A DNA stretch of 64,000 nt from an uncultured bacterium (lineage in GTDB: Bacteria > Babelota > Babeliae > Babelales > Vermiphilaceae). The stretch covers positions 512,001 to 576,000 of the forward strand of contig OY970172.1 of the NCBI GenBank assembly GCA_963707655.1, written 5' to 3'. The notes beneath the pieces were generated by a model. That model did no database searches. It had not been told where the DNA came from and saw nothing but the letters and a program-made list of their open reading frames with translations. A program made the position numbers and the translations under genes. Below are positions 3,687 through 64,000 of this stretch, piece after piece (positions within the stretch are counted from its first letter, which is position 1; each line of letters starts with the position of its first letter).

Positions 3687-3755
3687 TTTAATTGATCCTC
3701 ATCTAGAAGAAATAAGTTTTTTATACTGCTCAGTATAGCAAAAGTTTCATTTTTT

Positions 3756-4304: not shown

Positions 4305-4407
4305 TACATTTCTCTCTTTTTTATTACTTCTCTTTTTATCTTTTTTTTTCTATAAGTAGAATAATGCTACTCATCTATTATGATTGTAGATTAAAAAGGA
4401 TCTATTA

Positions 4408-5709: not shown

Positions 5710-5724
5710 AAAAGGCTCTTGATC

Positions 5725-29878: not shown

Positions 29879-30065
29879 AGCTTCACCTTTTTTTGTAGTA
29901 TGGTTATTAAAAATCTGTGATGAAAATACCAAATTTGTAGAAAAATAAAAATTACTTGTTATGGGTTTATAAGTAAATAAAAGTGTAGCAATCAAAAATG
30001 GACGCTTTGTATAATAGGAAATGCATCTGCTTCTTGCGATTTGATTATTGTGTATAAGGCTAAAG

Positions 30066-42893: not shown

Positions 42894-43724
42894 TTATCGT
42901 TTTTTTGCCTGGCGCGCCTTGGCATGGGCTATCGCCGTAGCTTTAGGCACAGTTCGCTTGCGCAGGCTTGCCTGCAGCATTGTGCTGAGTGTTGTTTTTT
43001 TCGTTTGTATCGATTTCTTTTTTTTGACGGTTGTTTTTGGTTTTCTTTTTTTGCTTTCTTGAATTGCCTGTTCCAAGCGTTGCTCAAAGGTATCTTTGTA
43101 TTTTTTCAAATCAAATTTCTTTTTAGAAAATTGCTCAATAAGCTGTTTTGCCAATTTTAATTCTATGCTACTGAGTTTTGGTTTGCTGTCCAATTCATGT
43201 ATGGTTTCCATATTTTTGATTTCATAGGCATAATTGATCGTGGTGAGCAGCAAGCCTTTTTCATAGGGAGCAATGGCGCATACATGCTCTTTGTCATGCA
43301 TAACAAAATTACCAATTGCTACTTTGCCCGACGCGCTGAGCGCCTGCTGAAAAAGGAAAAATTCCTTCTCATTCATTTTAGAAGGAGCAAGATAATAATG
43401 TGCATCAAAATAAATAGTTTGTAGATTGTCCCTATCAACAAACTCCATGAGAGCGATAGTATCGGATCGTTCAGGCTTTAATTTCTTTAGATTCTCTTGC
43501 GTTAAGATAAAGTAACTGCCATCCGGTTGTTTTAATCCTTTGACCGTATCCTGCCAAGAAACTTGTTTGTTGCAATCGCGGCACCAGCGTTCATAGACAA
43601 TAGGTGAATGGCATTTTGCGCAGAGGAGCGTAAAGCCGGGAGTGCGGGGAGCAATGGCAGAATAAAGTTTTACCGTAATATTTACTAAACCAAATGAGAG
43701 TGATCCGCTCCAGATTGCTTTCAT
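42894..43724 (-). CDS. ku: NHEJ protein Ku
   Basis: MKAIWSGSLSFGLVNITVKLYSA, YYLAP, ELKLAKQLIE, YKDTF motifs; basic tail. Confidence 0.93.
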   Translation of the reverse strand: MKAIWSGSLSFGLVNITVKLYSAIAPRTPGFTLLCAKCHSPIVYERWCRDCNKQVSWQDTVKGLKQPDGSYFILTQENLKKLKPERSDTIALMEFVDRDNLQTIYFDAHYYLAPSKMNEKEFFLFQQALSASGKVAIGNFVMHDKEHVCAIAPYEKGLLLTTINYAYEIKNMETIHELDSKPKLSSIELKLAKQLIEQFSKKKFDLKKYKDTFEQRLEQAIQESKKRKPKTTVKKKKSIQTKKTTLSTMLQASLRKRTVPKATAIAHAKARQAKKR

Positions 43725-43743
43725 TATTTTTCCTCTATGTTTC

Positions 43744-43807
43744 AAAAAAAATCTCTTGCTTTTTCATCATGCGGTGAACAGGTGATGAGAAGCAAGAGAT
43801 TTTTTTA
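43744..43807. terminator. Long hairpin terminator after the giant gene
   Basis: AAAAAAATCTCTTGCTT...TCATCA / TGATGA...AAGCAAGAGATTTTTTT. Confidence 0.7.
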
Positions 43808-43818
43808 TAATCGGTTTA

Positions 43819-46800
43819 TTAACTCATCATTTTTTCTACACATTTCTCCAGATCGAGGCAGCGTTTGCAGAGCTCCTCTATTCGCTGTTGCTGCAATTCA
43901 ATTTTCTGCTGCTGCTCCTGCCAGCCCTTGAGAAGTAGTGCATGCAATTGACTGTAACGGACAGCCTCAATTTCCCCCGCCAAATTATGAACTACCAATT
44001 CTGGATAAATTTCATAAACATCTTCTGCGATCAATCCATATTGTTTTCTTTTTTCATCGTCGCTCTTATAAGTAAACTGCACCGGATCCAATTGCATTAG
44101 TTGATTGCTCGTAGCAGACAAAGGCTGAATGTTATCTTTATGGCGTCTGGAGGATGTCGGATTGGTTAATTGACCAGAAGTAGTGATATCAACTGCGGTT
44201 CCAGTGGTAGTATTGCCATGGATCCCCGCAATAAAGCATGTGGTTTGCGTTCCTTGAGTACCAATGTAAATGCTGGTTGTTGTCGCGGACACAGGTGTAG
44301 TCGAACCAATAACGATATTGTTTGAACCTGTAGTCATCGCACTGCCGGCATTATAACCAATAGCAATATTGTTAGTACCTGTGGTAATGGCCGCACCGGC
44401 TTGATAGCCGATGGCGGTGTTTTCAGTGCCCGTCGTATTTGCTGTTAAGCTGTTGTAACCAATCGCCGTATTATTGGCACCCGTGGTGTTTGCCTTAAGA
44501 GCTTGATAACCCACGGCAGTATTATCGGCGCCAGTAGTGTTTGCTGTCAATGCCTGATACCCAACCGCAGTATTTGAAGCACCCGTCGTATTTGCTTTTA
44601 ATGTTTCATAGCCAATAGCTGTGTCGCCAGTACCGGTTGTATTATTTTGCAATGCAGCATAACCAAACGCACTGTTTGGACTTGCGGTATTCTTGTTCAG
44701 CGCTTGCCAACCAATAGCCGTATTGTTTGAACTGGTAACATTTGCTTGCAATGCCTGATACCCTTCAGCCACATTGCCAGAACCGGTAGTATTCGCTTGC
44801 AATGTTTCATAGCCGATAGCGGTATTTTGCACACCCGTTGTATTACTTTGCAATGCCGCGTAACCAACAGCCGTGTTGGGAGAGCCGGTGTTAGCAGCCA
44901 GAGCATTGTTGCCGATAGCAACACTATTTGAAGCAGTGACGTTTGCGCCCAAGGCATTGTTACCAACTGCGACGTTGGCAGAACCGGTCGTGTTTGCATC
45001 AAGAGTTTGATAACCCAGAGCAACGTTATTTATACCGGTGTTGTTGACCAGCAATGCCTGATAACCAACAGCGGTGTTGGGAGTGCCGGTAGAATTTGCT
45101 GCTAAAGCACTGGTACCAACGGCGGTATTGTTTGCTGCGGTGTTAGCGGCCAGAGCACTGTTACCAACAGCAACACTATTTGAAGCAGTGGTATTGGCAA
45201 CCAAGGCACTATTCCCTATCGCGACATTTGCAGAACCAGTTGTATTTGCAACAAGGGCATTGTAGCCGACAGCAACGTTATTCGCACCGGTGGTGTTGAC
45301 AAACAATGCATTGTAACCAATAGCGGTGTTCAGAGTTCCGGTGGTATTGAACAACATGGCATTAGTACCAACAGCAGTATTGTTTGATGCGGTATTCAAA
45401 GTAAGGGCACCGTAGCCAATAGCGGTATTGTTTGATCCGCCAGTATTCACAGACAAAGCCTGATAACCAAAAGCGGTATTATCCGTACCTGAAGCTAATT
45501 TATTTAATGCTTGATAACCAACACCCGTATTGTCAGAACCGGTTACACTACTATTACCTGCACCTAAACCGATGAGCGTGTTGAGCAGTGTTGGTGAGGT
45601 TGTATACAATGCCATTGTTGAACTATTGGTTGGTGAGAACATCACCGTTGACCCGGCAGTAGAAAGTGCCTTGAATGCTATTATACCTGAAGCAGGGGTG
45701 ATTGATCCGGCATCGCCATTAACACTCGTAACTGCTCCTAAAGAACTCAATGATTGAAATGTTGGTGATGTTGATGCGCCGGTGCTCGCAAATACATAAC
45801 CACTATTTGCTATGCCGCTTGTGGCACTTAAAAGAGCGCTTGTTGAAGTAGCGCCGGCGATAATGGGCGCATATGGGGTAAAGCTTGTTTGACCGGTTCC
45901 GCCATTGGCAACTGAAACGGTATTAGTCGCGCCAAGCTGTCCCGTTGATGAATTGATAGTAGCAATGTTGGTATTGGCAGTGGTCACTCCGGTGATACCA
46001 CTAATATAGCACGATGTTTGAGTTCCTTGAGTACCAATGCGTGTGGTGTTTGATTCAGCCGCTACACCGCCATTGCCGATATCAATATTGTTAGATCCGG
46101 TTGTCAAAGCAAGACCTGCTTGATAGCCCAAAGCAACGTTATTGCTGCCGACATTATTTTGGAGTGCATTGTTCCCTATAGCAACATTGCTAGAGCCGGT
46201 GGTATTGGAAAACAAGCTAGCGTATCCTACGGCGGTATTGGAAGAGCCGGTGTTGTTGTTGTTCAAAGCAGCGTATCCTATAGCGGTATTACCACCACCG
46301 GTATTGGAAGTCATGGTAGAGTATCCTACTGCGGTATTGCCGGATCCGGTGGTATTGGAAAGCAACGCCTCGTATCCCATGGCAGTATTACCAGAGCCGG
46401 TGTTGCTGTTCAAGGCAGCATACCCTACGGCTGTGTTATTGACCGACGATGGTGAACTATTATTTCCTGCAGCAAGACCTATGAATGTGCTTTTTGTCGT
46501 CGGGCTGGTGACCAAAAGATCTATCGTAGAACCTGAGCCGGAGAATTTTACCGTTGAGCCGGCATTGGAATTCGCGTTAAAAGTAATTACTCCCGAAGAT
46601 GGTGTTGCAGCACCTATATCGCCATCAAAGGTTATAGGTACGCTCCCCGATGTTGCTATGGTAATAGAGTGGGAACCGGGAGTAATAGTAACTCCTGTTC
46701 CTGCTGTTAAGCTAGCCGCTGCCGGTGCTCCACCGGTACTGCCAATGACTAATTGACCATTGGACAACTGGATGCCGCTTAACGCCGATGTTGGAGTTGC

Positions 46801-49800: not shown

Positions 49801-52800
49801 AACAGTAACAGGTACAAGATCAATAGATAATGAATTTGCGCCGGTTGTGTAGCTGATCGTGCCGCTTGTAGAAGTTAAGGTGCCAAATGCAGGATACGCG
49901 CCGGTTGCCCCAATAAGTACTTGACCATTGCTACCGACCGGTAATGAATGCAACGCCCCATCGGGAGAACCAACCTGTACCGCATTTGGTGTTGTTCCGG
50001 CAACATTTACTATTGGCGCCGTTGCGGTGCCGGTAATTGCTATGTTATTTCCCGCACTAACTGAAGTTACAATGCCGCCACCTGCGGTAACTGCTTGCCA
50101 TGTTGGCAGAGAGGTTGTACCGGTGCTGGTGAGCACATAACCCACATTGCTTTGTCCTGAAGAAGCGCTTTGTAAATTTCCTGTGGATGTCGAACCACCG
50201 GTAATTGGTGCATAGGCAGTAAAGCTCGTATCGCCGGTGCCGCCGCCGGGTACCGTCGCGGTGCCAAAGATTGGATCACTTGAAGCCCCATTTGATATTA
50301 ATGGTATGCCTGCAGATCCGGGTGCAACAAAGCCTACATTTGAAGTGCCTTCACCAAGAAGAACATTGTGCGCGGTGAGTGTTGGCAAACCGGTGCCGCC
50401 ATTGGCTACTGAGACCGGTGTAGATAATGAGATAGTGGTTGAGCCACCCAAGGTCAGTGGGCCACCACCGGTTAATCCGGTTCCTGCGGTGATAGTGAAG
50501 TTTTTTGAAGTCACATTGCCATTAGTCACCGCAAAATTGGTTGGACTAAATGAGGCGATACCTTTTTGTGTTGATGTCGCATTAATGCCAGTGATAGTAA
50601 CGGTTGATCCGCTCCCCGCAGTGGTAATGCCTTGAGTAGGTGATCCGATAATATTTAAGTTGTTGCTTGCCGGGGTTGCGGTACCTGAATTTTCAGTGAA
50701 AGTTGTAGGAACTGCTCCAGAAGCTGCAATGGTAATAGAGTTGGCCGCATTGGCAATAGAAATACCAGTTCCCGGGGTTAAGGTAGCTGCTGCAGGAGCT
50801 GCTCCGGTGCTTCCAATTACCACTTGTCCGTTGGTCAAACTGAGCGAACTCAATGCTGAAGCTCCCGTTGTTCCTGAAATCACTACTCCATTAGTATTGA
50901 ATGAAGTTGCACCCGTGCCACCGCCCGCTACCGATGCGGTGCCAAATGATGGATTAGCTGCAGAACCGTTTGAAATCAATGGAACGCCTGTTGCTGCAGA
51001 AGGGGCCACGGTTGTTATGGCAGAAGTACCGTTGCCGACCAATACATCGTATTGGGTAAGAGTTGTTGCACCGGTACCACCATGAGCAACAGTAACAGGT
51101 ACAAGATCAATAGATAATGAATTTGCGCCGGTTGTGTAGCTGATCGTGCCGCTTGTAGAAGTTAAGGTGCCAAATGCAGGATACGCGCCGGTTGCCCCGA
51201 GTAGAACTTGGCCATTGGTGCCGACCGGTAATGAATGCAATGCGCCGTTTGGAGAGCCAACTTGTACCGCATTGGTTGTTGTGCCTGAAACATTGACAGT
51301 TAATGTTGAGCCGGAGCCGGAAGTGGTTATATTATTACCACCTTCAATAGTTACCGTGGAACCACTGACCGATCCTGAATTGCCATCAATAGTGGTAATT
51401 GCACCACTTGCACTTACTGGCTGGAATGTTGGGGCATTACCTGAACCGTTAGATGTTAATACATAATTGGCTGTTCCGGCATTGGTTGTTACCAACTTTG
51501 TTCCATTATAATAAACAACACCATCAGGTGATGAAAAGCTTGTCGCGCCGGTACCGCCATTGGCGATTGATACGGGTGTTGATAATGCATATTGCAGCGT
51601 TGATGCATTGCTAGTCACAGTCAATCCTGTTCCCGCCGTAGGAGTGACGAATGCGGGATCGGCCGATGCTCCGGCTGCTAGCAACAATTGTCCTGCGCTT
51701 CCCGGACCAACGGCTACAATTGGATTTGAAGCTTCACCAACCAAAACACCATGTGCAGCAAGAGGCGTAACGGTGAGTGAGCCGCCCACAACCATGTTAC
51801 CAGTCGTTTCGAGCGTATTGGCAGCGCTTCTATACAAGTAAGTGTCGCCACCCAACACTATTTCTGTTGCAGTATTCGGCAATTGCAATTGATTGTTTAC
51901 CCCATCCAACTCCATAACAATATATTCGGGAATAACCGCTGCTCCGTCACCGGTATCACTATTCTGATAACTGAAGGTAAGTTTCGCATCGCTGCCGCCA
52001 ATTTTATTAATGTCCCAACCGCGAAGCGCGCTTGTGCCGCCAACAGTTGCACCTTCATCTGAAACAAGCCGCAAGCCGGCAACATCTGTTCTATTGGTAG
52101 TAATTGCAGTGAGGCTGACATTGTTTTCTGAGAGAACAAAAAGCGATGCGGGACTTGTTGCTTGATTTTGATAACCTATTGCCTCGGTAGAATAAATTGA
52201 TGGATTATATATTATTGCCGGATTATTTGTGTCACCATTGGCAACTTCTACCAACGTATTAGCAACATTCGATAGATTGCCAATCACAATTGAGTTATCT
52301 TCTTGGTCGAAGTAGGCTAAACTTACGTTGGCAGAATTATTAATGCTTATTTTATCGCTGTTAGCAGTACCCGCACTTAAATCAAGTGTTGTCGATCCAT
52401 TTTGTATAACATCATTCGTTTGATTAGCAAGATCTGTTGATGTTACCAATACAGATGTAGATGAGGTGTCGCTAGATAAACCATCTCTAATTCCCGTGAT
52501 ATAATCAATGATTTGCGCCGATGAAATCATTGCAGTTGCCTCGCCCGTTACTTGAATAGCGGTTCCTTGTGGCGACCCCAATGCATTGAGACCATTAAAA
52601 TAACAACCGATAATTTCAGTTATGGTCCCCGCTCCGGACGCTTGGATAGAGATACCCGAATCAGGATTAATTTGAAACGTGCAAGCGCTAATTTGTGCTG
52701 TTGACGAGCTGGCTTGCAGGACAGAATTTGTATTGTTTCTAAATCCGGCCCCTCGCGTGTTAAAATCAGCGCCATTACTTAGGCTGACGCCCGTCGCACA

Positions 52801-55800: not shown

Positions 55801-58800
55801 TCCAACCGCTTTGGCAAGGCTCGCATACGGATAGGCAAATGAACCGTTTCCTGTCGTATCATTACCAAAGGTTGCAACATAAATTGTTCTGCTTGATGTA
55901 GGGCTTGTGCTGCCGCTTTGCGAGACCCATTGCAAATTAGTTGGTATTGAAGGGCTCGCTTCTAATATTTGATTGGCGGTCGGTAACGTTGAGGGGAGTG
56001 ATAAGGTGTAGCTTGTTGGTACGGTGGTAGGTGCTTTTAAACCAACATAATTTCCACTACCGGTGCTGTCTTGCAAATCGATAGCATTTTGTAAGGTAAG
56101 GTTCAGTGTGTTATTTAAGGTGGTAATGCCCGTTACGCCAAGCGTGCCACCAACTGTTTCATTTCCAGTTACGGTCATGTTGGCTGCGGTAATAGTACCC
56201 GCAGCAAAATTACCAGAACTATCACGAGCAACAATCGTAGAATCTGTATTAAGAGGAGTTGCATCACTGGTGATGCTTACCGCGGTTGGGCTGGTAGTAA
56301 CCGCTATATAAGGATCACCAAAAATTGTTCTGAAATTTAAAGTGAGCCCTGTTTTTCCTTGGTAGATTTGCCCGGTACCTGAGCCCACATTTGCTCCTTG
56401 CACCTGGCTTGGAAGAGAAAATTCCTGGAAGAAAATAGGACTTGTTCCGATTGTTGCAAGCGGCGTGCTGCATAACCAGCTTGAACCGGCATAATTTGTA
56501 CCTTCAAGGATAAGTACATAGGCATTGCCAGCCTCTGAACCATTAGCAAAATCAGTTGGCCTGTACCACGGACTGCCTGCGCCCACCGCGGCAACCCAAA
56601 GACCATTTTCCACCGGCGTTGTTTGATCCGTTAAAAGAACACGATTACCTGAAGCGAGAGCTACCCCATCAATGGTTTGCTCTCCGTAAGGAGAATAATT
56701 GGTAACACCAACAACTTCTGCAGGAGTATGAACAACAATACCGGTGCCCACAACAGAATTTACATAGGCAACCGTGGCAACATCAGTATTGGCGGACGGT
56801 GTGCCGGCGATGGTAATCATATTTGTTGCAAAATCACCCGAATTATCTCGTACCACAATGTCTCCGGGAACATTCGAGCTTGAAATATCGGCCAATTTAT
56901 CATTGGTGATTGTCGCAGTTGTAATATCTGCATCAACAATGAGTGATGTTGATAAAAGCCCGGCGGCGGAATTGTGCACCACACCGACAGAAGACAAGTC
57001 ATCAATCGTCACTTGCCCCGAACTATTAATGTTCATAGCCTCTGAGCCATTAACATCAAATGAAAGTGTATTGGTACTCGGTGCTGACAGACCGGTATTG
57101 GTGCTGCCGGTAAATTGTAGTGACGGCACTGAGCTGCTTCCGGCAGGGAGTACAAGTGTCCCGGTTAAGGTGCCGCCGGTTAATGGCAAATCACCCGATG
57201 CCGTACCGGTAACTGTGCCAATGAGATTAGCAGTAATGGTGCCGGCGCTAAAATTGCCTGAAGAGTCACGAGAAACAATAGCGTTTGGGGTATTCGTATT
57301 GGTAGCTGTTGTGGCTGAATTTGCTACAAGGCCCGGAGTAGTGAGAGTAGCAAGTTTACCGTTGGCAATCGCAGCAGTATTAGAAATATCAGCATTGACA
57401 ATTAATGAACTTGATAAATTGCCGGAGGCATCATTATGAACAACTCCTGCAGAGGTAAAACCATCAATGGAAATCGTGCCGCCGTTTGATATTGCCATGC
57501 GCTCAAGGCCATTGGTATCGAAAGATAAAGCGCTCGCACTGGCAGAAAGTCCGCTATTCGTATTACCGGTAAAGGTGAGTGATGGCGCTGATGTGCTTCC
57601 CGCAGGTAGTTGCAATGTGCCGGTCATGGTATCGCCCGCTTTGGAAACTTTACCATTAAGTTGAGTTTGCACAGAAGATGTTGTTCCGGATAAATAACTG
57701 AGTTCAGTTGCGGTGGTAATGCTTGATGCGAGTTCATTGCTTGCATTAGTAATGGTAGCGGTGCTTGGATTTAAGGTTCCAACAATGAAGTTGCCGCTTG
57801 TCTCGAGTGTGTTGGCAGAGTTTCTATACAAATACGTATCGCCGCCAAAAACAATTTTAGTTGGCGCAGAAGGTGAAGTATTTGGTAATTGAAGTTGGTT
57901 GGCTACGCCATCCAATTGCATGAGCGTATATTCAGGAATAGCAGACTGCCCAACGGTATCACTATTTTGATAGTTGAATGCAAGCTGCGCGCCGCTGCCA
58001 ATTTTCTCAATATCCCAGCCACGTAGTGCAGTTGTGCCTCCAACGGGCGTACCTTCATCAGACACTAATCGTACGCCGGCAATTTGTGTGCGATCAGTAG
58101 TAATTGCGGTAAGAGTTGCCGGAGCAGCTGATAAAACAAATAGTGATGCAGGGCTCGTCATCTGATTCTGATAGCCAATCGCCTGCGTAGAATAAAGTGA
58201 CGAATTATATGCTATTTCAGGATTGTTTGCACTTCCCAGTGATGCAGCCACTAAAGGGGTATCTGTGTCACTGAAATGGCCAATCGAAAGTGCATTATTA
58301 TTACTTTGGTCAAAATAGGCAAGTGTTACATTAGTAGAATTGTTGACCGATATTGCGCTACTGCTCAGGGTTCCTGCAGTGAAGTTAACTGTTGCTGTTC
58401 CATTTTGTACTAGATCGGTGGTTGAAGTAAATACGCCTACTGCAGCCGCAATTAATGTGGTGGACGCGGTATCGCCGGGGTTACCAATTTGAATACCGGT
58501 TATGTAATTTTGAATCCTGGTACTTTTCATGCCGGCAGAAGCTTCATCGGTAATGATGATAGCCGTTCCTTGAGGATTTCCTGATGAATCGCGGCCATCA
58601 AAATAGCAGGCGATAATGTTTGCTTGAGTTCCGGCGCCGCTCACCTGAATATCCAAGCTTCCCGGTTCATTTATTTGAAAGGTACAACCATCAAGAACTG
58701 ACTGTGCCGCACCTGATTGCACAACATCATACAGATTATTGCTAAATGCTGTTGCCAGTATATTGATATCAGCGTTATTAGTTAAGGTGACGCCGGTTGT

Positions 58801-61800
58801 ACAGTTTTGTACCACGCCACTCTGATAAATTATTGTGGCTCCTGATCCTGTTGCATTCAGACCAACATTGGCCGGTGATCCGGTGATTGTTCCCTGTATG
58901 CCACAGCCCACACAAAAAACGGTCGCATCATTAATGCTTAATCCCGTACCATTCTCCCTGAAAATACAATAATCAAGCGCATAGGTAGAATCAGTACCGG
59001 CACACAAGATTCCGGTACCAAAATTTAATAGTTGCACAGCGGACAAAGATGAGGTATTGCCGGAACCGGAAAGCGCTATACCATTTGCTGTTGATGCGCC
59101 ACCCGAATTCAAGGTGAGCTCAATAAATCGACTGTTCACCGTTGCTGCCAGAAGATCATTAGATAAGGTAGTTGGTACAATGATAGTAGAAATTGCCGAT
59201 TCACCTACTACCGACACGCCACTGGCAGTAATAGTAATGGGGCCAGCGCTATTATTTTCTGTATAAGTGCCGGCTGCAATCGATATCACCACGGGATCAG
59301 TGATGGTTGAAATAGCATTGGCAACAGTAACTGCCTTTGCAAGGCTCGCATACGGATATGTAAATGAACCGTTCCCCGTTGTATCATTACCATATGTGGA
59401 AACATAAATAATTCTGCTTGATGTAGGGCTTGTGCTGCCGCTTTGTGAAACCCATTGCAAATTAGTTGGTGTTGAAGGGTTTGCCTGTAATATTTGATTG
59501 GCGGTTGGCGGCGTTGATGGGAATGATACGGTGTAGCTTGTTGGCACCGTGGCGGGCGCATTCAAACCAACATAATTCCCGGTGCCTGTTCCGTCTTGCA
59601 AGCGAATTGCATTTTGTAGGGCCATATTGAGATTGCCGGTCATAGTGTCACCAGCTTTAAGCACATTTAATGAAGCTGCGCCGGTAACATTGCCAACTAA
59701 TGAGGCAGTGATAGTGCCGGCGCTAAAATTGCCTGAAGCATCGCGAGAAACAATGGCGTTTGCTGTATTGGTACTGGTTGCCGTGGTGGCTGAATTTGCT
59801 ACAAGACCTGGAGTAGTCAGAGTCGCAAGCTTACCATTAGCTATTGCAGCGTTGACAGCAATATCAGCATTAACAATTAATGAACTTGATAAATTGCCCG
59901 AGGCATCATTATGCACAACACCTGCGGTAGCAAAGCCATCAATATAGACAGTGCCGCCGGTTGTTATGCCCATACGCTCGACCCCATTTGTGTTAAAAGA
60001 TAAGGCACTTGCACTCGCAGAAAGTCCGCTGTTGGTATTGCCGGTAAAGGTGAGCGATGGCGCGGCATGTGTGCCTGCAGGTAATTGTAAGGTGCCAACA
60101 GGATTGGTCAGAGTAACATCGCCGGCAATATTGGTATTTCCTTGATAATCAACAGTAAAATCGTTGCCATTTACCGTGATGGCATTACCTGACACAGGAT
60201 TCAAATTGATAGTATCGGCCATAATAGTATTGGCTGCGAAATTGCCGCTGCCATCACGCAATACGAGAGTATCGGGAATATCTGAAGAGCTAAATGAGAC
60301 AGATGATGGGGAATTTCCGGCTCCGTTAGAGGCCAATACAGAAGAAGCGGGACCGGTATCGGCAGTCACTAATTGAGTGCCATTATAATAGACAATGCCA
60401 TAAGGAGATGAAAAACTCTTAGCATTGGTTCCACCATTGGCGATGGAAACAGGTGAAGTTAAATTGATTACGGGAGAAGTTGCCGTTCCGGTAATATTGA
60501 TGCCATTGCCGCCTGTGACTGAAGTTACTGCGCCGCTTGCACTTACTGGCTCCCAGGTTGGTGCCAAGCCTGAACCGTTACTGGTGAAAACAGAGCCAGC
60601 TATTAATTGACCAGTGGACGCACTTTGCAAGGCTCCTTGAGTTGTTACGCCACCAATCACCGGTGCATATGGCGCAAAATTTATTGTCCCCGTACCGCCA
60701 TTTGAAACAGCCAACGTACCACCCAATGTTTCTGTTGTTCCTGTGCCGTTAAATTTTAATCCTGTTGTGCCGCCGGTAAAAGTGAAGCTATTTCCCGTTA
60801 ACGCACCTCCCGTATCACCGGTAATGCTAAAGCTTTGCCATGATGGAGAATTGCCTGAACCATTTGATGTTAATACTTGACCACTTGTACCCAATGATAA
60901 TGAATGGAGCGCGCCGTTTGAACTGCCAATCTGCACCGCATTTGTTGTGGTACCTGCAACATTAACCACCGGAGATGTTGTAGTACCGGTAATTGATATA
61001 TTATTTCCTTGATTAACAGCAGTTACTGCACCGCTTGTGCTCACCGCTTGGAATGAAGGAGCATTGCCCGCGCCATTTGAGGTTAATACATAATTTGTAG
61101 TGCCAACAGCAGTAGTATTTAATTTGGTGCCATCAAAATAGACAACTCCATCAGTATTGGCCATAGATGTTGCATTGGTTCCGCCGCTGGCGATAGCAAC
61201 AGGAACAGACAATGAATATTGCAATGTTGTTGAATTGGAACTTAAAGATAATCCGGTGCCCACGGTTGGTGTTACAAATGCAGGATCGGCCGATGCGCCG
61301 GCAGCTACCAATATCTGGCCAGCATTTCCCGGACCGGCAGAAGCGATAGATGAGGCTCCTTCACCAAGCAAAACACTATGCGCAGTAAAACTGGTTTGCC
61401 CGGTACCGCCGCCGGGAACGGTTGCTGTGCCAAATGAAGGATCTGCGCTTGCACCGTTGGACATTAATACTTGGCCCGCTGTTCCGGGGGCAATGAGTGC
61501 AACTTGTGCGGTTCCCTCACCGACTAAAAGATTATGGGCAGCAAGTGATGATAATCCGGTGCCACCATGAATAACCGAGACGGGCGACGTTAAATTTACC
61601 ACCGGAGAATTGGTTGTGCCGGTAATATTTATACCGGTGCCACCGACAACCGTGGTTACTGCACCACTTGCGCTAACCGGTTGCCATGTTGGTACAGATG
61701 ATGAGCCGGTGCTGGTAAATACATAGTTAACATTAGATTGTCCTGTTGATGCACTTTGGAGTGCTCCTGTGCCCGTTGTTCCGCCAACAATTGGTGCGTA

Positions 61801-64000
61801 CGAAGTGAAGCTTGTCTCACCCGTGCCGCCACCTGCTACTACGGCCGTGCCAAATGAAGGTTGTGCTGCAACGCCATTGGAAATCAACGGAATGCCGCTT
61901 GTTGATGAAGGGGCAATTGTTGCGACTGCTGAAGTGCCATTGCCGGCGACAAGACTATATTGAGGGATGCTTGTTAGTCCCGTTCCGCCATAAGAAACGC
62001 TCAAAGGTTCGGCTACATCAATGTTTAACGAATTGACTCCGGGAGTAAACGTGAGTGTGCCGCCGATAGAGGTGAGCGCAGCAAAAGCAGGTGCTGTTCC
62101 TGTTGCGCCCAACAACACTTGACCATTTGTGCCAAGTGGCAATGAATGCAACGCCCCATTTGGAGAGCCAACTTGCACAGCATTGGTCGTAGTGTTTGCA
62201 ACATTAACCACCGGAGATATTGCAGTACCCGTGATTGATATATTATTGCCGGCGTTTACCATGGTAACAACGCCGATCGTGCTTACGGGCTGAAATGATG
62301 GAGCATTGCCCGCGCCATTTGAGGTTAATACATAATCAGCAAGGCCAACATTCGTAGTATTTAATTTGGTACCGTCAAAATAAACAACCCCATCAGTGTT
62401 GCTCATAGATGTTGCATTGGTACCACCACTGGCGATAGCAACAGGAATTGATAAAGAATATTGCAATGTTGTTGAATTGGAACTTAAAGATAATCCGGTG
62501 CCCACCGTTGGTGTTACAAATGCAGGATCGGCCGATGGGCCGGCTGCTACCAATATCTGACCGGCATTTCCCGGACCGGTAGAAGCGATATTTGATGTTC
62601 CCTCGCCGAGCAAAATGCTATGAGCCGTGAAACTTGTTTCTCCTGTTCCCCCGCCGGGAACGGTTGCTACGCCAAATGAAGGGTCAACGTTTGCACCGTT
62701 AGACATTAATACTTGGCCCGCTGTTCCGGGAGCAATCAGAGCAACCTGTGCAGTGCCTTCACCGACTAAAAGATTATGGGCAGTAAGTGATGATAAGCCG
62801 GTGCCACCATGAATAACCGAGACAGGCGACGTTAAATTTACCACCGGAGAATTGGTTGTGCCGGTAATATTTATACCGGTGCCACCGACAACCGTGGTTA
62901 CTGCACCACTTGCGCTAACCGGTTGCCATGTTGGTACAGATGATGAGCCGGTGCTGGTAAATACATAGTTAACATTAGATTGTCCTGTTGATGCACTTTG
63001 GAGTGCTCCTGTGCCCGTTGTTCCGCCAACAATTGGTGCGTACGAAGTGAAGCTTGTCTCACCCGTGCCGCCACCTGCTACTACGGCCGTGCCAAATGAA
63101 GGTTGTGCTGCAACGCCATTAGAAATTAATGGAATGCCGCTTGTTGATGAAGGGGCAATTGTTGCGACTGCTGAAGTGCCATTACCGGCGACAAGACTAT
63201 ATTGAGGTATGCTTGTTAGTCCCGTTCCGCCATAAGAAACGCTCAAAGGAGCGGTTACGTCAATACTCAATGAATTTGTACCGGGAGTAAACGTGAGTGT
63301 GCCGCCGGTAGAGGTAAGCGCGGCAAAAGCAGGTGCTGTTCCTGTTGCGCCCAACAACACTTGACCATTTGTGCCAAGTGGCAATGAATGCAACGCCCCA
63401 TTTGGAGAGCCAACTTGCACAGCATTGGTCGTAGTGTTTGCAACATTAACCACCGGAGATATTGCAGTACCCGTGATTGATATATTATTGCCGGCGTTTA
63501 CCATGGTAACAACGCCGATCGTGCTTACGGGCTGAAATGATGGAGCATTGCCCGCGCCATTTGAGGTTAATACATAATCAGCAAGGCCAACATTGGTTGT
63601 ATTTAATTTGGTACCGTCAAAATAAACAACCCCATCAGTGTTGCTCATTGATGTTGCATTGGTACCACCACTGGCGATAGCAACAGGAATTGATAAAGAA
63701 TATTGCAATGTTGTTGAATTGGAACTTAAAGATAATCCGGTGCCCACCGTTGGTGTTACAAATGCAGGATCGGCCGATGGGCCGGCTGCTACCAATATCT
63801 GACCGGCATTTCCCGGACCGGTAGAAGCGATATTTGATGTTCCCTCGCCGAGCAAAATGCTATGAGCCGTGAAACTTGTTTCTCCTGTTCCCCCGCCGGG
63901 AACGGTTGCTGTGCCAAATGAAGGGTCAACGTTTGCACCGTTAGACATTAATACTTGGCCCGCTGTTCCGGGAGCAATCAGAGCAACCTGTGCAGTGCCT
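43819..64000 (-). CDS. Giant fibre/adhesin-like protein (>6,700 aa, 5'-truncated) with C-terminal peptidase S74 chaperone domain
   Basis: The frame stays open to the window end. G/S/T/A/N-rich, with xGGTG repeats, NTAVGYQAL-type repeats and C-terminal SSRRHKDNI...YGLIAEDV..IYPELV...VRY plus a coiled coil. Confidence 0.9.
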   Translation of the reverse strand, partial: GTAQVALIAPGTAGQVLMSNGANVDPSFGTATVPGGGTGETSFTAHSILLGEGTSNIASTGPGNAGQILVAAGPSADPAFVTPTVGTGLSLSSNSTTLQYSLSIPVAIASGGTNATSMSNTDGVVYFDGTKLNTTNVGLADYVLTSNGAGNAPSFQPVSTIGVVTMVNAGNNISITGTAISPVVNVANTTTNAVQVGSPNGALHSLPLGTNGQVLLGATGTAPAFAALTSTGGTLTFTPGTNSLSIDVTAPLSVSYGGTGLTSIPQYSLVAGNGTSAVATIAPSSTSGIPLISNGVAAQPSFGTAVVAGGGTGETSFTSYAPIVGGTTGTGALQSASTGQSNVNYVFTSTGSSSVPTWQPVSASGAVTTVVGGTGINITGTTNSPVVNLTSPVSVIHGGTGLSSLTAHNLLVGEGTAQVALIAPGTAGQVLMSNGANVDPSFGVATVPGGGTGETSFTAHSILLGEGTSNIASTGPGNAGQILVAAGPSADPAFVTPTVGTGLSLSSNSTTLQYSLSIPVAIASGGTNATSMSNTDGVVYFDGTKLNTTNVGLADYVLTSNGAGNAPSFQPVSTIGVVTMVNAGNNISITGTAISPVVNVANTTTNAVQVGSPNGALHSLPLGTNGQVLLGATGTAPAFAALTSIGGTLTFTPGVNSLNIDVAEPLSVSYGGTGLTSIPQYSLVAGNGTSAVATIAPSSTSGIPLISNGVAAQPSFGTAVVAGGGTGETSFTSYAPIVGGTTGTGALQSASTGQSNVNYVFTSTGSSSVPTWQPVSASGAVTTVVGGTGINITGTTNSPVVNLTSPVSVIHGGTGLSSLAAHNLLVGEGTAQVALIAPGTAGQVLMSNGASADPSFGTATVPGGGTGQTSFTAHSVLLGEGASSIASAGPGNAGQILVAAGASADPAFVTPTVGTGLSLSSNSTTLQYSLSVPVAIASGGTNATSMANTDGVVYFDGTKLNTTAVGTTNYVLTSNGAGNAPSFQAVSTSGAVTAVNQGNNISITGTTTSPVVNVAGTTTNAVQIGSSNGALHSLSLGTSGQVLTSNGSGNSPSWQSFSITGDTGGALTGNSFTFTGGTTGLKFNGTGTTETLGGTLAVSNGGTGTINFAPYAPVIGGVTTQGALQSASTGQLIAGSVFTSNGSGLAPTWEPVSASGAVTSVTGGNGINITGTATSPVINLTSPVSIANGGTNAKSFSSPYGIVYYNGTQLVTADTGPASSVLASNGAGNSPSSVSFSSSDIPDTLVLRDGSGNFAANTIMADTINLNPVSGNAITVNGNDFTVDYQGNTNIAGDVTLTNPVGTLQLPAGTHAAPSLTFTGNTNSGLSASASALSFNTNGVERMGITTGGTVYIDGFATAGVVHNDASGNLSSSLIVNADIAVNAAIANGKLATLTTPGLVANSATTATSTNTANAIVSRDASGNFSAGTITASLVGNVTGAASLNVLKAGDTMTGNLNMALQNAIRLQDGTGTGNYVGLNAPATVPTSYTVSFPSTPPTANQILQANPSTPTNLQWVSQSGSTSPTSSRIIYVSTYGNDTTGNGSFTYPYASLAKAVTVANAISTITDPVVISIAAGTYTENNSAGPITITASGVSVVGESAISTIIVPTTLSNDLLAATVNSRFIELTLNSGGASTANGIALSGSGNTSSLSAVQLLNFGTGILCAGTDSTYALDYCIFRENGTGLSINDATVFCVGCGIQGTITGSPANVGLNATGSGATIIYQSGVVQNCTTGVTLTNNADINILATAFSNNLYDVVQSGAAQSVLDGCTFQINEPGSLDIQVSGAGTQANIIACYFDGRDSSGNPQGTAIIITDEASAGMKSTRIQNYITGIQIGNPGDTASTTLIAAAVGVFTSTTDLVQNGTATVNFTAGTLSSSAISVNNSTNVTLAYFDQSNNNALSIGHFSDTDTPLVAASLGSANNPEIAYNSSLYSTQAIGYQNQMTSPASLFVLSAAPATLTAITTDRTQIAGVRLVSDEGTPVGGTTALRGWDIEKIGSGAQLAFNYQNSDTVGQSAIPEYTLMQLDGVANQLQLPNTSPSAPTKIVFGGDTYLYRNSANTLETSGNFIVGTLNPSTATITNASNELASSITTATELSYLSGTTSSVQTQLNGKVSKAGDTMTGTLQLPAGSTSAPSLTFTGNTNSGLSASASALSFDTNGLERMAISNGGTISIDGFTSAGVVHNDASGNLSSSLIVNADISNTAAIANGKLATLTTPGLVANSATTATNTNTPNAIVSRDSSGNFSAGTITANLIGTVTGTASGDLPLTGGTLTGTLVLPAGSSSVPSLQFTGSTNTGLSAPSTNTLSFDVNGSEAMNINSSGQVTIDDLSSVGVVHNSAAGLLSTSLIVDADITTATITNDKLADISSSNVPGDIVVRDNSGDFATNMITIAGTPSANTDVATVAYVNSVVGTGIVVHTPAEVVGVTNYSPYGEQTIDGVALASGNRVLLTDQTTPVENGLWVAAVGAGSPWYRPTDFANGSEAGNAYVLILEGTNYAGSSWLCSTPLATIGTSPIFFQEFSLPSQVQGANVGSGTGQIYQGKTGLTLNFRTIFGDPYIAVTTSPTAVSITSDATPLNTDSTIVARDSSGNFAAGTITAANMTVTGNETVGGTLGVTGITTLNNTLNLTLQNAIDLQDSTGSGNYVGLKAPTTVPTSYTLSLPSTLPTANQILEASPSIPTNLQWVSQSGSTSPTSSRTIYVATFGNDTTGNGSFAYPYASLAKAVGVANAIATITDPVVISIAAGTYTENNSAGPLAITANGISITGAAAQATIVMPNTLSNDFISAVASTQITQLTFATAGTSSAAALTFSGSNNLFYISSLKIVGFQTAISCAGTNTQNFIDDCFLANNGTGILCNNAAIASNGCFIVGSETSIANTGISGTGSSARLLFATCSIQNCATGVTLTNSADINILATVFSNNMYDVVQSGAAESVLDGCTFQINEPGSFDIQVSGAGTQANIIACYFDGRDSSGNPQGTAVAVTGEGTINIDGCTIQNYITGLQVGATSNTDTASTSLTASSVVILDSLTNDIAQYGTSSILFTAGSASDDTFAINNSTNLTFAFFDLDDAGALAIGNYSNTSTRLLEVALSTADDHVLMYEPSLYSTQAIGYQNYEASPSSLFMLSQANANLTAITTDRTKTAGVRLVSDEGTPVGGTTALRGWDINKLGTGAQLAFNYQNSDTVGQAAIPEYTLMQLDGVANQLQLPNISPSAPTKIVFGGDTYLYRNSANTLETSGNFIVGTLNPSTATITNASNELASSITTATELSYLSGTTSSVQTQLNNKLSLTGGTMTGTLTLPAGSTSAPSLTFTGSAGTGLSANTGALNFSTSGSQRMGISSGGTVSIAGFTSPGVVHNDASGNLTSSLIVNADIASNAAIANGKLATLVTPGLVANSATTATNLDTPNAIVSRDASGNFSAGTITASLIGNVTGAASLNVLKAGDTMTGNLNMALQNAIRLQDGTGSANYVGLNAPATVPTSYTLSLPAALPTANQILQANSLTPTNLQWTNIGGDISPSVGRSIYVAEFGNDTTGNGSFVYPYASLAKAVSVANTLSTATNPILIIVGAGTYTENNSAGPITVTAAGISIVGASANSTFIIANTLSQNLIATTTGTRFIELTFEAIGSSTAAGIALSGTANTSSFSNVRVLNFQTGISCGGTNSTYLLNYCLLTGNGTGLSINAVTVFCNNCSITGSAASIANTGLSATGSTAAVLLAGGIIQNCATGVSLSNGADFNTRGAGFRNNTNSVLQASSSTAQISACTFQINPDSGISIQASGAGTITEIIGCYFNGLNALGSPQGTAIQVTGEATAMISSAQIIDYITGIRDGLSSDTSSTSVLVTSTDLANQTNDVIQNGSTTLDLSAGTANSDKISINNSANVSLAYFDQEDNSIVIGNLSNVANTLVEVANGDTNNPAIIYNPSIYSTEAIGYQNQATSPASLFVLSENNVSLTAITTNRTDVAGLRLVSDEGATVGGTSALRGWDINKIGGSDAKLTFSYQNSDTGDGAAVIPEYIVMELDGVNNQLQLPNTATEIVLGGDTYLYRSAANTLETTGNMVVGGSLTVTPLAAHGVLVGEASNPIVAVGPGSAGQLLLAAGASADPAFVTPTAGTGLTVTSNASTLQYALSTPVSIANGGTGATSFSSPDGVVYYNGTKLVTTNAGTANYVLTSNGSGNAPTFQPVSASGAITTIDGNSGSVSGSTVTIEGGNNITTSGSGSTLTVNVSGTTTNAVQVGSPNGALHSLPVGTNGQVLLGATGAYPAFGTLTSTSGTISYTTGANSLSIDLVPVTVAHGGTGATTLTQYDVLVGNGTSAITTVAPSAATGVPLISNGSAANPSFGTASVAGGGTGATSFNTNGVVISGTTGASALSSLSLTNGQVVIGSTGAAPAAATLTPGTGISIANAANSITIAASGAVPTTFTENSGTATPASNNLNIIGSPTQGITTAGSGSTVTITGINATSTQKGIASFSPTNFAVTNGNVTSKNFTITAGTGLTGGGPLTLGGSTTISLSTPVSVANGGTGLPTLTAHNVLLGEGTSNVGFVAPGSAGIPLISNGASSDPIFGTATVPGGGTGDTSFTAYAPITGGSTSTGNLQSASSGQSNVGYVLTSTGTTSLPTWQAVTAGGGIVTSVSAGNNIAITGTATAPIVNVAGTTPNAVQVGSPDGALHSLPVGSNGQVLIGATGAYPAFGTLTSTSGTISYTTGANSLSIDLVPVTVAHGGTGATTLTQYDVLVGNGTSAITTVAPSAATGVPLISNGSAANPSFGTASVAGGGTGATSFNTNGVVISGTTGASALSSLSLTNGQVVIGSTGAAPAAATLTPGTGISIANAANSITIAASGAVPTTFTENSGTATPASNNLNIIGSPTQGITTAGSGSTVTITGINATSTQKGIASFSPTNFAVTNGNVTSKNFTITAGTGLTGGGPLTLGGSTTISLSTPVSVANGGTGLPTLTAHNVLLGEGTSNVGFVAPGSAGIPLISNGASSDPIFGTATVPGGGTGDTSFTAYAPITGGSTSTGNLQSASSGQSNVGYVLTSTGTTSLPTWQAVTAGGGIVTSVSAGNNIAITGTATAPIVNVAGTTPNAVQVGSPDGALHSLPVGSNGQVLIGATGAYPAFGTLTSTSGTISYTTGANSLSIDLVPVTVAHGGTGATTLTQYDVLVGNGTSAITTVAPSAATGVPLISNGSAANPSFGTASVAGGGTGATSFNTNGVVISGTTGASALSSLSLTNGQVVIGSTGAAPAAATLTPGTGISIANAANSITIAASGAVPTTFTENSGTATPASNNLNIIGSPTQGITTAGSGSTVTISGINATSTQKGIASFNLTEFTVALGAVTSNPFTITAGTGLTGGGTLNLGGSTTISLSTPVSVANGGTGLPTLTAHNVLLGEGTSNVGFVAPGSAGIPLISNGASSDPIFGTATVPGGGTGDTSFTAYAPITGGSTSTGNLQSASSGQSNVGYVLTSTGTTSLPTWQAVTAGGGIVTSVSAGNNIAITGTATAPIVNVAGTTPNAVQVGSPDGALHSLPVGTNGQVLIGATGAYPAFGTLTSTSGTISYTTGANSLSIDLVPVTVAHGGTGATTLTQYDVLVGNGTSAITTVAPSATTGVPLISNGSAANPSFGTASVAGGGTGATTLTGVLIGNGTSAVTGNPVTQYDVLVGGTSNTINSITPSSTAGVPLISNGGSANPAFGTAVVAGGGTGATSFTANSVVISGATPTSALSGIQLSNGQLVIGSTGGAPAAASLTAGTGVTITPGSHSITIATSGSVPITFDGDIGAATPSSGVITFNANSNAGSTVKFSGSGSTIDLLVTSPTTKSTFIGLAAGNNSSPSSVNNTAVGYAALNSNTGSGNTAMGYEALLSNTTGSGNTAVGYSTMTSNTGGGNTAIGYAALNNNNTGSSNTAVGYASLFSNTTGSSNVAIGNNALQNNVGSNNVALGYQAGLALTTGSNNIDIGNGGVAAESNTTRIGTQGTQTSCYISGITGVTTANTNIATINSSTGQLGATNTVSVANGGTGQTSFTPYAPIIAGATSTSALLSATSGIANSGYVFASTGASTSPTFQSLSSLGAVTSVNGDAGSITPASGIIAFKALSTAGSTVMFSPTNSSTMALYTTSPTLLNTLIGLGAGNSSVTGSDNTGVGYQALNKLASGTDNTAFGYQALSVNTGGSNNTAIGYGALTLNTASNNTAVGTNAMLFNTTGTLNTAIGYNALFVNTTGANNVAVGYNALVANTTGSANVAIGNSALVANTTASNSVAVGNSALAANTAANNTAVGTSALAANSTGTPNTAVGYQALLVNNTGINNVALGYQTLDANTTGSANVAVGNNALGANVTASNSVAIGNNALAANTGSPNTAVGYAALQSNTTGVQNTAIGYETLQANTTGSGNVAEGYQALQANVTSSNNTAIGWQALNKNTASPNSAFGYAALQNNTTGTGDTAIGYETLKANTTGASNTAVGYQALTANTTGADNTAVGYQALKANTTGANNTAIGYNSLTANTTGTENTAIGYQAGAAITTGTNNIAIGYNAGSAMTTGSNNIVIGSTTPVSATTTSIYIGTQGTQTTCFIAGIHGNTTTGTAVDITTSGQLTNPTSSRRHKDNIQPLSATSNQLMQLDPVQFTYKSDDEKRKQYGLIAEDVYEIYPELVVHNLAGEIEAVRYSQLHALLLKGWQEQQQKIELQQQRIEELCKRCLDLEKCVEKMMS
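47045..51270. repeat. Intragenic tandem repeat, 1287-bp unit (429 aa), about 3.3 copies
   Basis: Identical shadow ORFs at 47493, 48780 and 50067 (offset 1287); the DNA copies are nearly identical. Confidence 0.9.
60880..64000. repeat. Intragenic tandem repeat, 1242-bp unit (414 aa), at least 2.5 copies
   Basis: Identical shadow ORFs at 61769 and 63011 (offset 1242); the repeat runs off the window end. Confidence 0.88.

Follow-up and report, generated by a model that had tools for sequence, protein, structure and literature searches.

A 22-kb chromosomal gene of a Dependentiae bacterium encodes a giant S74-terminated protein proposed to form a trimeric fibre

The minus strand of the window (the whole stretch of 64,000 nucleotides analyzed here) carries one frame that has its stop at position 43819, runs to 63999, and is still open at the edge, where it codes for 6,726 aa. 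The single open frame of more than 20 kb recognized in the initial annotation proved intact in the whole genome: the gene extends 1,919 nt past the window edge, its stop-to-stop frame measures 7,397 codons, and the first ATG preceding a hydrophobic leader gives a fibre protein of 7,366 aa (genome positions 555822-577919). A 22-kb open frame cannot be due to chance, and we take the fibre gene to be chromosomal and intact, in a bacterium of the Dependentiae (Babeliales-type). Thr, Gly, Ser, Ala, and Asn make up 60% of the protein, and charged residues account for just 5.6%. Its N terminus, which is invisible within the window, reads MKKMCLFFTILLFS.., a signal-peptide-like leader. A crude hydrophobic-leader test was passed by all 20 N termini of the family (with start codons chosen by eye) and also by 226 of 481 background ORFs. 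The features of the gene (Table 1), namely, the xGGTG repeats, the linker units, the beta-helix-like modules, the NTAVGY blocks, the SSRRHK motif, and the S74 domain, were each found where the initial annotation had placed them.

Table 1. Features of the fibre gene and its downstream neighbour (window positions unless stated otherwise)
Feature	Position	Strand	Basis or remark
Giant fibre gene, window part (residues 641-7366 of 7,366)	43819..64000	-	
Fibre gene, start codon and first 640 codons	genome 576001-577919		outside the window
Region A, xGGTG shaft (residues ~190-1900; window part)	60220..63999	-	~70-aa units in 414-aa super-repeats
Linker unit	59659..60342	-	motif IV.RD.SGNF.A
Beta-helix module 1 (residues 2088-2770)	57610..59658	-	predicted right-handed parallel beta-helix
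Small inserted domain (residues 3051-3166)	56422..56769	-	in the extra 350 aa before module 2
Beta-helix module 2 (residues ~3263-3947)	54079..56133	-	boundaries placed by offset from motif positions
Beta-helix module 3 (residues ~4090-4768)	51616..53652	-	
Region B, xGGTG shaft	46720..51612	-	429-aa (1,287-nt) tandem super-repeats
NTAVGY repeat block 1	46090..46437	-	seven 16/17-residue units
Internal neck	45955..46092	-	copy of the stretch ahead of the terminal S74 domain
NTAVGY repeat block 2	44275..45480	-	about 24 17-residue units; predicted trimeric beta-helix
Peptidase_S74 intramolecular chaperone domain (PF13884)	43993..44154	-	Pfam E 6e-15
C-terminal coiled coil of the chaperone domain	43822..43953	-	trimer-model contacts, fragment residues 284-326
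Ku gene, downstream neighbour (context only)	42894..43745	-	PF02735, E 1.6e-38

The S74 domain reaches 55.7 bits where the cut-off is 22 (61.4 bits in a six-frame search of the genome) and is the only PF13884 match within the gene. No other Pfam family exceeded its cut-off over the whole fibre protein, the sole further match being a sub-threshold one to DUF7592 (23.9 bits, cut-off 27). The S-S-R-R-H-K motif at window positions 44137-44154 places the putative nucleophile at Ser7256 and the lysine at Lys7261 (Ser217 and Lys222 of the modelled fragment, five residues apart). Both are unchanged in all 20 of the family's aligned C termini, and the residue that follows the nucleophile is Ser in 18 of them and Asp in 2. 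The Pfam score and the invariant Ser-Lys dyad bear out the S74 chaperone proposed at first. A profile of the family's C termini matches the solved S74 chains 8hqz (an L-shaped tail fibre, E 4.8e-12), 6f45, and 8jov and, at E 3.9e-7, PDB 7dc3, the S74-type ICA domain of the myelin regulatory factor MYRF, a eukaryotic membrane-bound transcription factor which has no fibre. When the last 327 residues were modelled as a trimer, the ipSAE was 0.94 versus 0.00 for the best control, with a contact agreement of at least 96% and a partner pLDDT of at least 92 over the runs, and with contacts spaced every 17 residues in the repeats and 3 to 4 residues apart in the coiled coil. The mark used in this test was reached by 20 of 30 solved pairs and by 1 of 23 single chains in calibration, and part of the score may stem from solved S74 trimers on which the model had been trained. 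The earlier proposal of trimeric C-terminal repeats capped by S74 agrees with this model, and we regard the trimer formed by the last 327 residues as a confident prediction.

The protein contains 36 GGTG motifs. At the DNA level, successive copies of the region A super-repeat are 97.8% and 82% identical; in region B, copies 1 and 2 do not differ, and copy 3 shows 96.1% identity to copy 2. Four RD[A/S]SGNF[S/A]AG units are present together with two looser variants, and linker-type units recur between the modules and are common to relatives in other genera. The NTAVGY repeats have a period of 17 residues, some units having 16 (autocorrelation peak of 0.53 at lag 17), and the contact spacing of the trimer model agrees; the 14-residue NTAVGYQAL period first assigned to them was wrong. 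The likeness to the 14-residue beta-roll heads of trimeric autotransporters, also put forward initially, is not sustained, given the period of 17 and the lack of a Pfam match at E ≤ 1. At that threshold neither module 1 nor any of the other pieces searched (linker, insert, region B unit, and repeat block 1) had a Pfam match, and phmmer against the PDB returned 0 matches with the C-terminal 926 aa and with the region B unit. The xGGTG unit was also considered as DUF5907 of Bdellovibrionota (an Atlas lead with a score of 0.86), a candidate rejected after 0 genome matches at E ≤ 1. The internal neck shares the motif ..IGTQGTQT.C[YF]I.GI.G.....SGQL.. with the stretch ahead of the S74 domain and continues into shaft without such a domain; it is probably a relic of the fusion of two fibre genes.

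The three central modules, of ~680 aa each, start near Y[VI]..GNDTTGNG and end near GDTYLYR. Their beta-helix-like nature, suggested in the initial annotation, is supported by an AF2 model of module 1 (mean pLDDT of 77.6, core mostly above 90) and by Foldseek, which returned 148 PDB matches at E ≤ 1e-3 with modest TM-scores of 0.25 to 0.54. The top matches are a Geobacillus virus E2 protein, a GH87 glucanase, the Dettilon and HK620 tailspikes, and AlgE epimerases; PL6 lyases and the adhesin PfbA are also matched. We therefore describe the modules as predicted right-handed beta-helices resembling phage tailspikes and polysaccharide enzymes. Between the module copies the flanks are 84 to 95% identical and the cores 44 to 62%, and no catalytic residues or motif were identified in the modules. 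The inserted domain matches PDB 9nx3_A, a "Capsid decoration protein" (phmmer E 1e-8), and is common to the relatives G231, G247, G255, and G254.

The giant length could in part be a product of assembly, with repeats over-counted or paralogous fibre genes concatenated, a reading that the two 100% identical 1,287-nt copies would permit and that the internal neck, which looks like a fibre-gene end fused to a further fibre gene, would also favour. The public reads bridge nothing: four soil/wetland runs, drawn from two studies, contain no more than 0.24 of the words sampled and yield contigs of 150 to 440 nt, mostly without differences, none of which spans a module or repeat junction. Other frames of the genome (tolB and paralogues A and B) are split, which suggests indel errors. 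Against this stand the remaining repeat copies, which are placeable because they differ by 28 to 218 nt, the recovery of the genome on a single 1.09-Mb contig, and the rarity with which a chance join would stay in frame over 22 kb. In addition, independent genomes hold S74-ending frames of 7,403, 6,614, and 5,700 aa, and the protein library includes module-bearing proteins of 7,500 and 6,021 aa. We consider an assembly origin of the giant length improbable; the precise length may still be an estimate of the assembler, as two adjacent repeat copies match at 100%.

Both flanks of the gene consist of housekeeping genes, with Ku, GPDH, and UPPS downstream and tolQ, tolR, a tolA-like gene, and tolB upstream, and phage genes are absent from the 20 kb on either side. 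A prophage or tailocin module was looked for upstream, and the tol genes were found instead. No neighbour gene matches a phage family in PHROG or Pfam, and the models for sheath (PF04984), Baseplate_J (PF04865), HK97 capsid (PF05065), and Terminase_6N (PF03237) gave 0 matches in the whole genome, a single contig with an estimated completeness of 88.6%. The absence of phage context noted at the outset thus holds on both flanks and, for four models, genome-wide; context was examined in this one of the 70 S74-bearing genomes. The possibility that the fibre belongs to a phage, a prophage remnant, a tailocin, or an extracellular contractile injection system particle rather than to the cell nevertheless has to be weighed, as the nearest named relatives of every recognizable part are phage virion proteins. 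NTAVGY block 2 matches virion and tailspike families of PHROG (E from 1e-102 to 1e-80), the PHROG matches include phrog_6002 (1.5e-102), phrog_23837, and the tailspike family phrog_4636, and S74 chains from phage fibres, tailspike folds, and a capsid decoration protein domain are all among the fibre's matches. Besides the lack of phage genes, the signal-peptide-like leader of 20 out of 20 family members argues against a particle-borne fibre, phage fibres normally having no such leader to our knowledge. We judge this origin very unlikely.

The bacterium has a tiny genome and is a parasite of protists. Across its phylum, PF13884 is matched by 70 of 261 genomes (48 of 189 high-quality ones), with 289 matches in total and up to 17 per genome, and here the fibre genes occupy 4.7% of the genome. 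The fibre modules recur in relatives in differing combinations. At E ≤ 1e-3, module 1 matches 1,168 representative proteins. In a separate search with a single protein, its named relatives came solely from Babeliales or TM6 MAGs, and the others from unnamed MAGs. The fibre appears to belong to a multigene family that spans the phylum, recombines, and is apparently undescribed. Not all members are intact: a paralogous giant 120 kb away is split by frameshifts into 5 frames and a mid-size paralogue into 3, which points either to decay of genes of this kind or to indel errors in the assembly. The frameshift sites lie outside long homopolymer runs and do not discriminate between phase variation and sequencing error. 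None of the public runs holding fibre sequence is an RNA run. The broken sisters raise the question of whether our gene is itself a silent or decaying relic that has lost its expression. Its 22 kb are nonetheless stop-free, its dyad is intact, the family features are conserved, and the same genus contains an orthologue-like copy (S74 region 58% identical, with a matching ..CKRCL.LE.. tail), all of which makes a relic highly improbable.

The N-terminal region is peculiar to this protein. For residues 1-230, tblastn (E < 0.01) detected no paralogue in the genome; they matched only themselves among the longer proteins of a 5.8-billion library and gave only Atlas leads below 0.9; the N termini of 14 family members are mutually 15 to 28% identical. 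The model places helices over residues 36-118 at pLDDT 60 to 72, and because it is poor overall (mean pLDDT of 46), a role of this domain as an anchor is a guess. The initial annotation saw no autotransporter barrel, and indeed no YadA-type anchor (YadA_anchor, PF03895) was found in the protein or the genome, the E. coli control being positive. A search for ShlB of two-partner secretion gave no match in the genome, nor in the controls, and so carries no information. Two secretins are encoded. The Sec-type leader, with the two secretins as candidates, partly narrows the export route, and we know of no route across the outer membrane for a fibre of such size.

The closest known system is the MAT (mosaic adhesive trimer) fibre family of Bdellovibrio bacteriovorus, in particular its S74 subgroup, such as Bd3182 (PMC10769870). 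MAT fibres carry a signal peptide, lie on the predator surface, and recognize prey glycans; S74 ends 13 of 21 of them, and all 21 have in common a conserved domain, rich in beta structure and ~130 aa long, after the signal peptide (PMC10769870). Judging from that account, our fibre resembles MATs in being encoded by the cell and not by a phage, in having a signal peptide, in its predicted long trimeric beta-helical fibre, in ending in an S74 chaperone-protease that carries a Ser..Lys motif, in its many paralogues with shuffled modules, and in that the producer must recognize another cell for invasion. Two of the MAT traits, a chromosomal location without phage context and, by the crude test, a signal peptide, are found here, and a surface location would follow by analogy. 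By the same description there are also differences: another phylum, a protist host instead of bacterial prey as the target, 7,366 aa instead of ~1,000 aa, three tailspike-type right-handed beta-helix modules predicted in series, SSRRHK in place of the SDxxxK of MATs (PMC10769870), and a unique N-terminal domain, weakly predicted to be helical, in contrast to the beta-rich MAT domain known by its description. We found no sequence-level link to MAT-specific parts, the DUF5907 lead having given 0 matches. Two supplementary text files of PMC10769870 do not name Dependentiae, TM6, or Babel; the MAT-like proteins found in other bacteria are tabulated in Supplementary Tables 3-4 of that paper, to which this statement does not extend, and may affect how novel the fibre is.

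Phage tailspikes and tail fibres share with our protein an S74 domain at the profile level (8hqz, 6f45, 8jov), the tailspike-like module fold, and 17-residue repeats, which also occur in PHROG virion families; K1F endosialidase and T5 pb1 are phage proteins with a C-terminal intramolecular chaperone, as cited in PMC10769870 and PMC4690869. Unlike tailspikes, the fibre has a signal peptide, a several-fold greater length, and three beta-helix modules per chain, in a genome where the four models found no virion or tail genes. Trimeric autotransporter adhesins of the YadA family are similar in combining a long trimeric fibre, short Gly/Asn-rich repeats, and a signal peptide. They differ in having a YadA_anchor barrel, a period of 14 and not 17, and Hep_Hag/YadA heads, for which no match at E ≤ 1 was obtained here, and they trimerize by their membrane anchor, whereas we assign trimerization of the fibre to the presumably cleavable S74 domain.

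Our working hypothesis, to which we give a probability of roughly 0.6, is that the gene encodes the precursor of a homotrimeric fibre that is Sec-exported, chaperoned by S74, bound to the cell surface, and used for MAT-like recognition of host glycans; surface location and host attachment are proposed by analogy with the Bdellovibrio fibres. The chain would pass the inner membrane via Sec, and the C-terminal S74 domain would align three chains in register and nucleate folding of the beta-helical shaft before cleaving itself off at Ser7256. Extrapolated from Bd3182 (922 residues, ~550 Å long; PMC10769870), the mature fibre might measure a few hundred nanometres. It could arrive at the surface via one of the two secretins and be held to the cell by the unique, putatively helical N-terminal domain, while the three diverged beta-helix modules would bind, and perhaps cut, protist surface glycans, leading to attachment and uptake. 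The fibre family would then function like the MAT fibres of Bdellovibrio.

A secreted S74 trimer could also serve a non-adhesive purpose, as a scaffold for three beta-helix enzymes that degrade or modify polysaccharides, as a dense fibrous coat shielding an extracellular stage, or in mimicry of prey that invites engulfment by a protist, a role also proposed for giant-virus fibrils. The module fold, which also matches GH87 alpha-1,3-glucanase, mannuronan C5-epimerases, and PL6 lyases, would suit an enzyme, and the composition of the protein and the share of the genome devoted to fibre genes, both given above, would likewise be compatible with such a job. The failure to identify a catalytic motif in the modules counts against it, and the combination of diverged cores with conserved flanks in a mosaic multi-copy family fits a recognition repertoire better than a coat. 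The closest characterized system is moreover adhesive (PMC10769870). We hold a non-adhesive job to be unlikely and retain host-glycan recognition as the preferred function.

A more tentative proposal, which we put forward as a possibility short of even odds, is that Dependentiae infect eukaryotic cells by means of a phage-style receptor-binding repertoire, a recombining set of Sec-exported, S74-chaperoned trimeric fibres that takes up to ~5% of a 1-Mb genome, the largest reaching ~0.5 micron and carrying several serial tailspike-type modules for binding or cutting glycans, and that this repertoire determines host range in the phylum. If this is true, the repertoire decides which protists a lineage attaches to and enters. 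In the literature searched, we found no account of how this phylum finds or enters its protist hosts; the paper on the Chromulinavorax genome goes no further than type IV pili and "surface antigens of unknown function" (PMC6561590). The S74 fibre family is a concrete, testable candidate for host recognition in the phylum, and it would carry the MAT principle, in which a cell recognizes another cell by phage-like S74 fibres, over from a predatory bacterium to bacteria that parasitize eukaryotes. For fibre biology, three predicted tailspike-type modules per chain are an unusual architecture, and the passage of a giant fibre over the outer membrane poses a general question of secretion.

The giant fibre gene occupies a single open frame on the minus strand, which covers 6,726 codons between a stop at window position 43819 and the edge of the window; in the source genome, a single contig of 1,091,075 nt with an estimated completeness of 88.6% (window, G000:C1:512001-576000), its stop-to-stop length is 7,397 codons. 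Counted from the first ATG that a leader (MKKMCLFFTILLFSHTTY..) follows, the protein has 7,366 residues (genome 555822-577919). All elements listed in the initial annotation were found at their positions, and only the period of the NTAVGY repeats, put at 14 residues, had to be corrected: it is 17 (some units being of 16), as seen from an autocorrelation of 0.53 at lag 17 and from the 17-residue spacing of contacts within these repeats in the trimer model discussed below. Of the protein's residues, 60% are Thr, Gly, Ser, Ala, or Asn and only 5.6% are charged; GGTG occurs 36 times, and the shaft parts have no Pfam match even at E up to 1. The linker units between the modules carry IV.RD.SGNF.A motifs, with an extra 350 aa ahead of module 2. 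The unique N-terminal domain has no paralogue in its own genome, and its sole match among the longer proteins of a 5.8-billion-sequence library was the giant fibre itself.

Features of the giant fibre and of its neighborhood
Feature	Position	Strand	Remark
Leader	residues 1 to about 20
Unique domain	residues about 20-190		weakly modelled as helices
xGGTG shaft	residues about 190-1900		units as 414-aa super-repeats
Three modules	residues about 1900-4770		each about 680 aa, spaced by linker units
Module 1	window 57610-59658	minus
Second xGGTG shaft	residues about 4770-6400		429-aa super-repeats
Two 17-residue repeat blocks	residues 6495-6610 and 6814-7215
Internal neck copy	window 45955-46092
S74 domain	residues 7256-7309
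Coiled coil	residues from about 7323
ORF beside Ku, 456 aa	window 39930-41300	minus	leader-like N-terminus
ORF beside Ku, 472 aa	window 41351-42769	minus	leader-like N-terminus

Two repeat copies have the same DNA sequence and public reads do not resolve the assembly, so some uncertainty attaches to the exact length of the gene. That the giant scale is real is argued by similar-sized giants in independent genomes, where S74-ended frames reach 7,403, 6,614, and 5,700 aa. The two 17-residue blocks enclose a copy of the neck, the stretch that normally precedes S74, but no S74 follows this copy, the gene containing a single PF13884 match; the copy is probably a scar left by the joining of two ancestral fibre genes. 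Of note, a small domain of ∼115 aa within the additional stretch ahead of module 2 (window 56422-56769) matches 9nx3_A, a "Capsid decoration protein" (E of 1e-8), and a similar domain closes the first frame of paralogue A. At low depth, soil and wetland metagenome runs of two studies contain short contigs that match parts of window 52000-60000 with no or very few differences, so those runs include this strain or one nearly identical to it.

Of 1.84 billion representative proteins, 1,168 match module 1 at E up to 1e-3, and 160 do so at E up to 1e-30; many of these matching proteins measure 2,000 to 7,500 aa. In the AlphaFold2 model of this module, built from 30 sequences, short strands pile up into a long stack; the mean pLDDT is 77.6, and the core lies mostly above 90. 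A Foldseek search of the PDB with this model gave 148 matches at E up to 1e-3, with modest TM-scores (0.25 to 0.54), led by a Geobacillus virus E2 protein (5e-9) and including GH87 alpha-1,3-glucanase, the Dettilon and HK620 tailspikes, AlgE mannuronan epimerases, PL6 lyases, and the pneumococcal adhesin PfbA. These matches identify the modelled fold as a right-handed parallel beta-helix like that in tailspikes and polysaccharide-active proteins, a role in binding or cutting sugars being putative. When the three module copies are compared, their flanks are 84 to 95% identical and their beta-helix cores only 44 to 62%, a pattern from which we infer that the modules may represent three different specificities in a homogenised frame.

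The S74 domain proposed earlier is borne out by a Pfam Peptidase_S74 score of 55.7 bits (cut-off, 22), with the Ser-Lys dyad kept. When the final 327 residues of the giant fibre are aligned with 19 relatives, one of them a paralogue and 18 encoded in other genomes of the phylum, both dyad residues of the S-S-R-R-H-K motif are invariant in 20/20 sequences. Searched with a profile of these C-termini, solved structures gave four chains at E up to 0.01, each of which carries S74: 8hqz (L-shaped tail fibre, 4.8e-12), 6f45, 8jov, and MyRF 7dc3. Modelled in three copies, the last 327 residues are predicted to form a trimer, with an ipSAE of 0.94 versus 0.00 for the best control, contact agreement of at least 96% between runs, and a partner pLDDT of at least 92. 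In calibration, 20 of the 30 solved pairs reached the mark, as did 1 of the 23 single chains, counts that apply only roughly to the three-copy case since the calibration used two copies with their own alignments; part of the pass may also be recall, as S74 trimers have already been solved.

The absence of a phage context, noted initially from the window, extends to the whole genome, which gave no match to phage sheath, Baseplate_J, HK97-type capsid, or Terminase_6N models, all four of which found matches in control genomes. Upstream, where a prophage or tailocin tail module had been envisaged as the alternative, tolQ, tolR, a tolA-like gene, and tolB diverge from the giant gene; downstream, its own strand also carries Ku, the two leader-bearing ORFs of the table (without a Pfam or PHROG family), and then glycerol-3-phosphate dehydrogenase and undecaprenyl-diphosphate synthase. 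None of the tested neighbours has a PHROG family, except for a weak match of unknown function on TolQ. The YadA anchor was not found in the genome, in agreement with the reported lack of a trimeric-autotransporter anchor; two secretins and one BamA gene are present. Elsewhere in the window (28412-30175, minus), a 587-aa ORF fuses a phosphoribosyltransferase domain to OMP decarboxylase, as in a UMP synthase.

Three further S74 ends occur in the genome, and all fibre genes together account for 4.7% of it. The intact paralogue (543 aa) lies ∼2.4 kb from the BamA gene (L016:477-3182 and 5553-7184), a nearness that is probably coincidence. A second fibre locus outside the window (L014 and L015; genome 430889-458497, plus strand) holds two split paralogues, a mid-size one of ∼2,300 aa in 3 frames and a second giant of ∼6,900 aa in 5 frames, both with a leader and an S74 end; none of their frameshift sites falls in a long homopolymer run. 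tolB is likewise split, into two overlapping frames of 254 aa (no family) and 191 aa (PD40 repeats) (L013:4760-6063; genome 580760-582063), which may reflect assembly indels or decay of the gene and bears on how the broken paralogues are read.

Six-frame searches found PF13884 in 70 of 261 genomes of the phylum (48/189 of those at least 90% complete), with 289 matches in total and up to 17 in one genome. In genome G244, an island of about 80 kb (C1:1135643-1215994) carries at least 13 S74-ended frames of 515 to 5,700 aa on one strand. Eighteen relatives were fetched, two ORFs of which (G254 and G231) run off the locus or contig. Leader-like N-termini were seen in all 16 others and in 4/4 fibre genes of the source genome, by a crude test that 226 of 481 background ORFs also pass and with starts picked by eye. 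S74 is present in 17 and the 17-residue repeats in 13 of the 19 ORF pieces from relatives; beta-helix modules, linkers, and the small insert domain are common to the giant fibre and genomes G254, G255, and G231, and xGGTG units to the giant fibre and G097 and G105. The family shares its modules in differing combinations. By HMM, only 12 of 151 module-bearing library proteins, many of which may be truncated, have an S74 end. Of eight genome_contigs loci with module 1 relatives, five belong to Candidatus Babeliales or TM6 MAGs and three are labelled just "bacterium"; the naming of the phylum rests in part on these loci. The S74 member L046 (G195:C1:561400-568400) has a long collagen-like G-x-T repeat right after its helical N-domain, and the module-bearing library proteins P0004 and P0087 have a hydrophobic start followed by G-P-P-type repeats.

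The closest described system is the superfamily of mosaic adhesive trimers (MATs) of Bdellovibrio bacteriovorus. Its description (PMC10769870) reports 21 proteins of about 1,000 aa with a signal peptide and a conserved beta-rich N-domain, which form trimeric fibres on the predator surface; 13 end in a self-cleaving S74 domain, and one member binds a prey glycan. The giant fibre shares this logic but is about seven times longer, carries serial tailspike-type modules, and, as far as the comparison reached, lacks the MAT N-domain. The papers retrieved on "mosaic adhesive trimer" all concern Bdellovibrio-like predators. Searches combining Dependentiae with intramolecular chaperone found nothing, and with tail fiber just one virome preprint, apparently unrelated; the Chromulinavorax genome paper (PMC6561590) does not contain the words fiber, fibr, or tail, and no mention of Dependentiae was counted in a "giant genes" preprint.

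Computation thus establishes the gene, its S74 domain and dyad, the beta-helix fold, the missing phage context, and how large the family is, and it predicts the trimer. Our working model is that the giant chain would be exported by Sec and that its C-terminus would nucleate folding before self-cleavage. The fibre would then pass through a secretin, be anchored by its N-domain, and may serve to attach the bacterium to its protist host via glycans.
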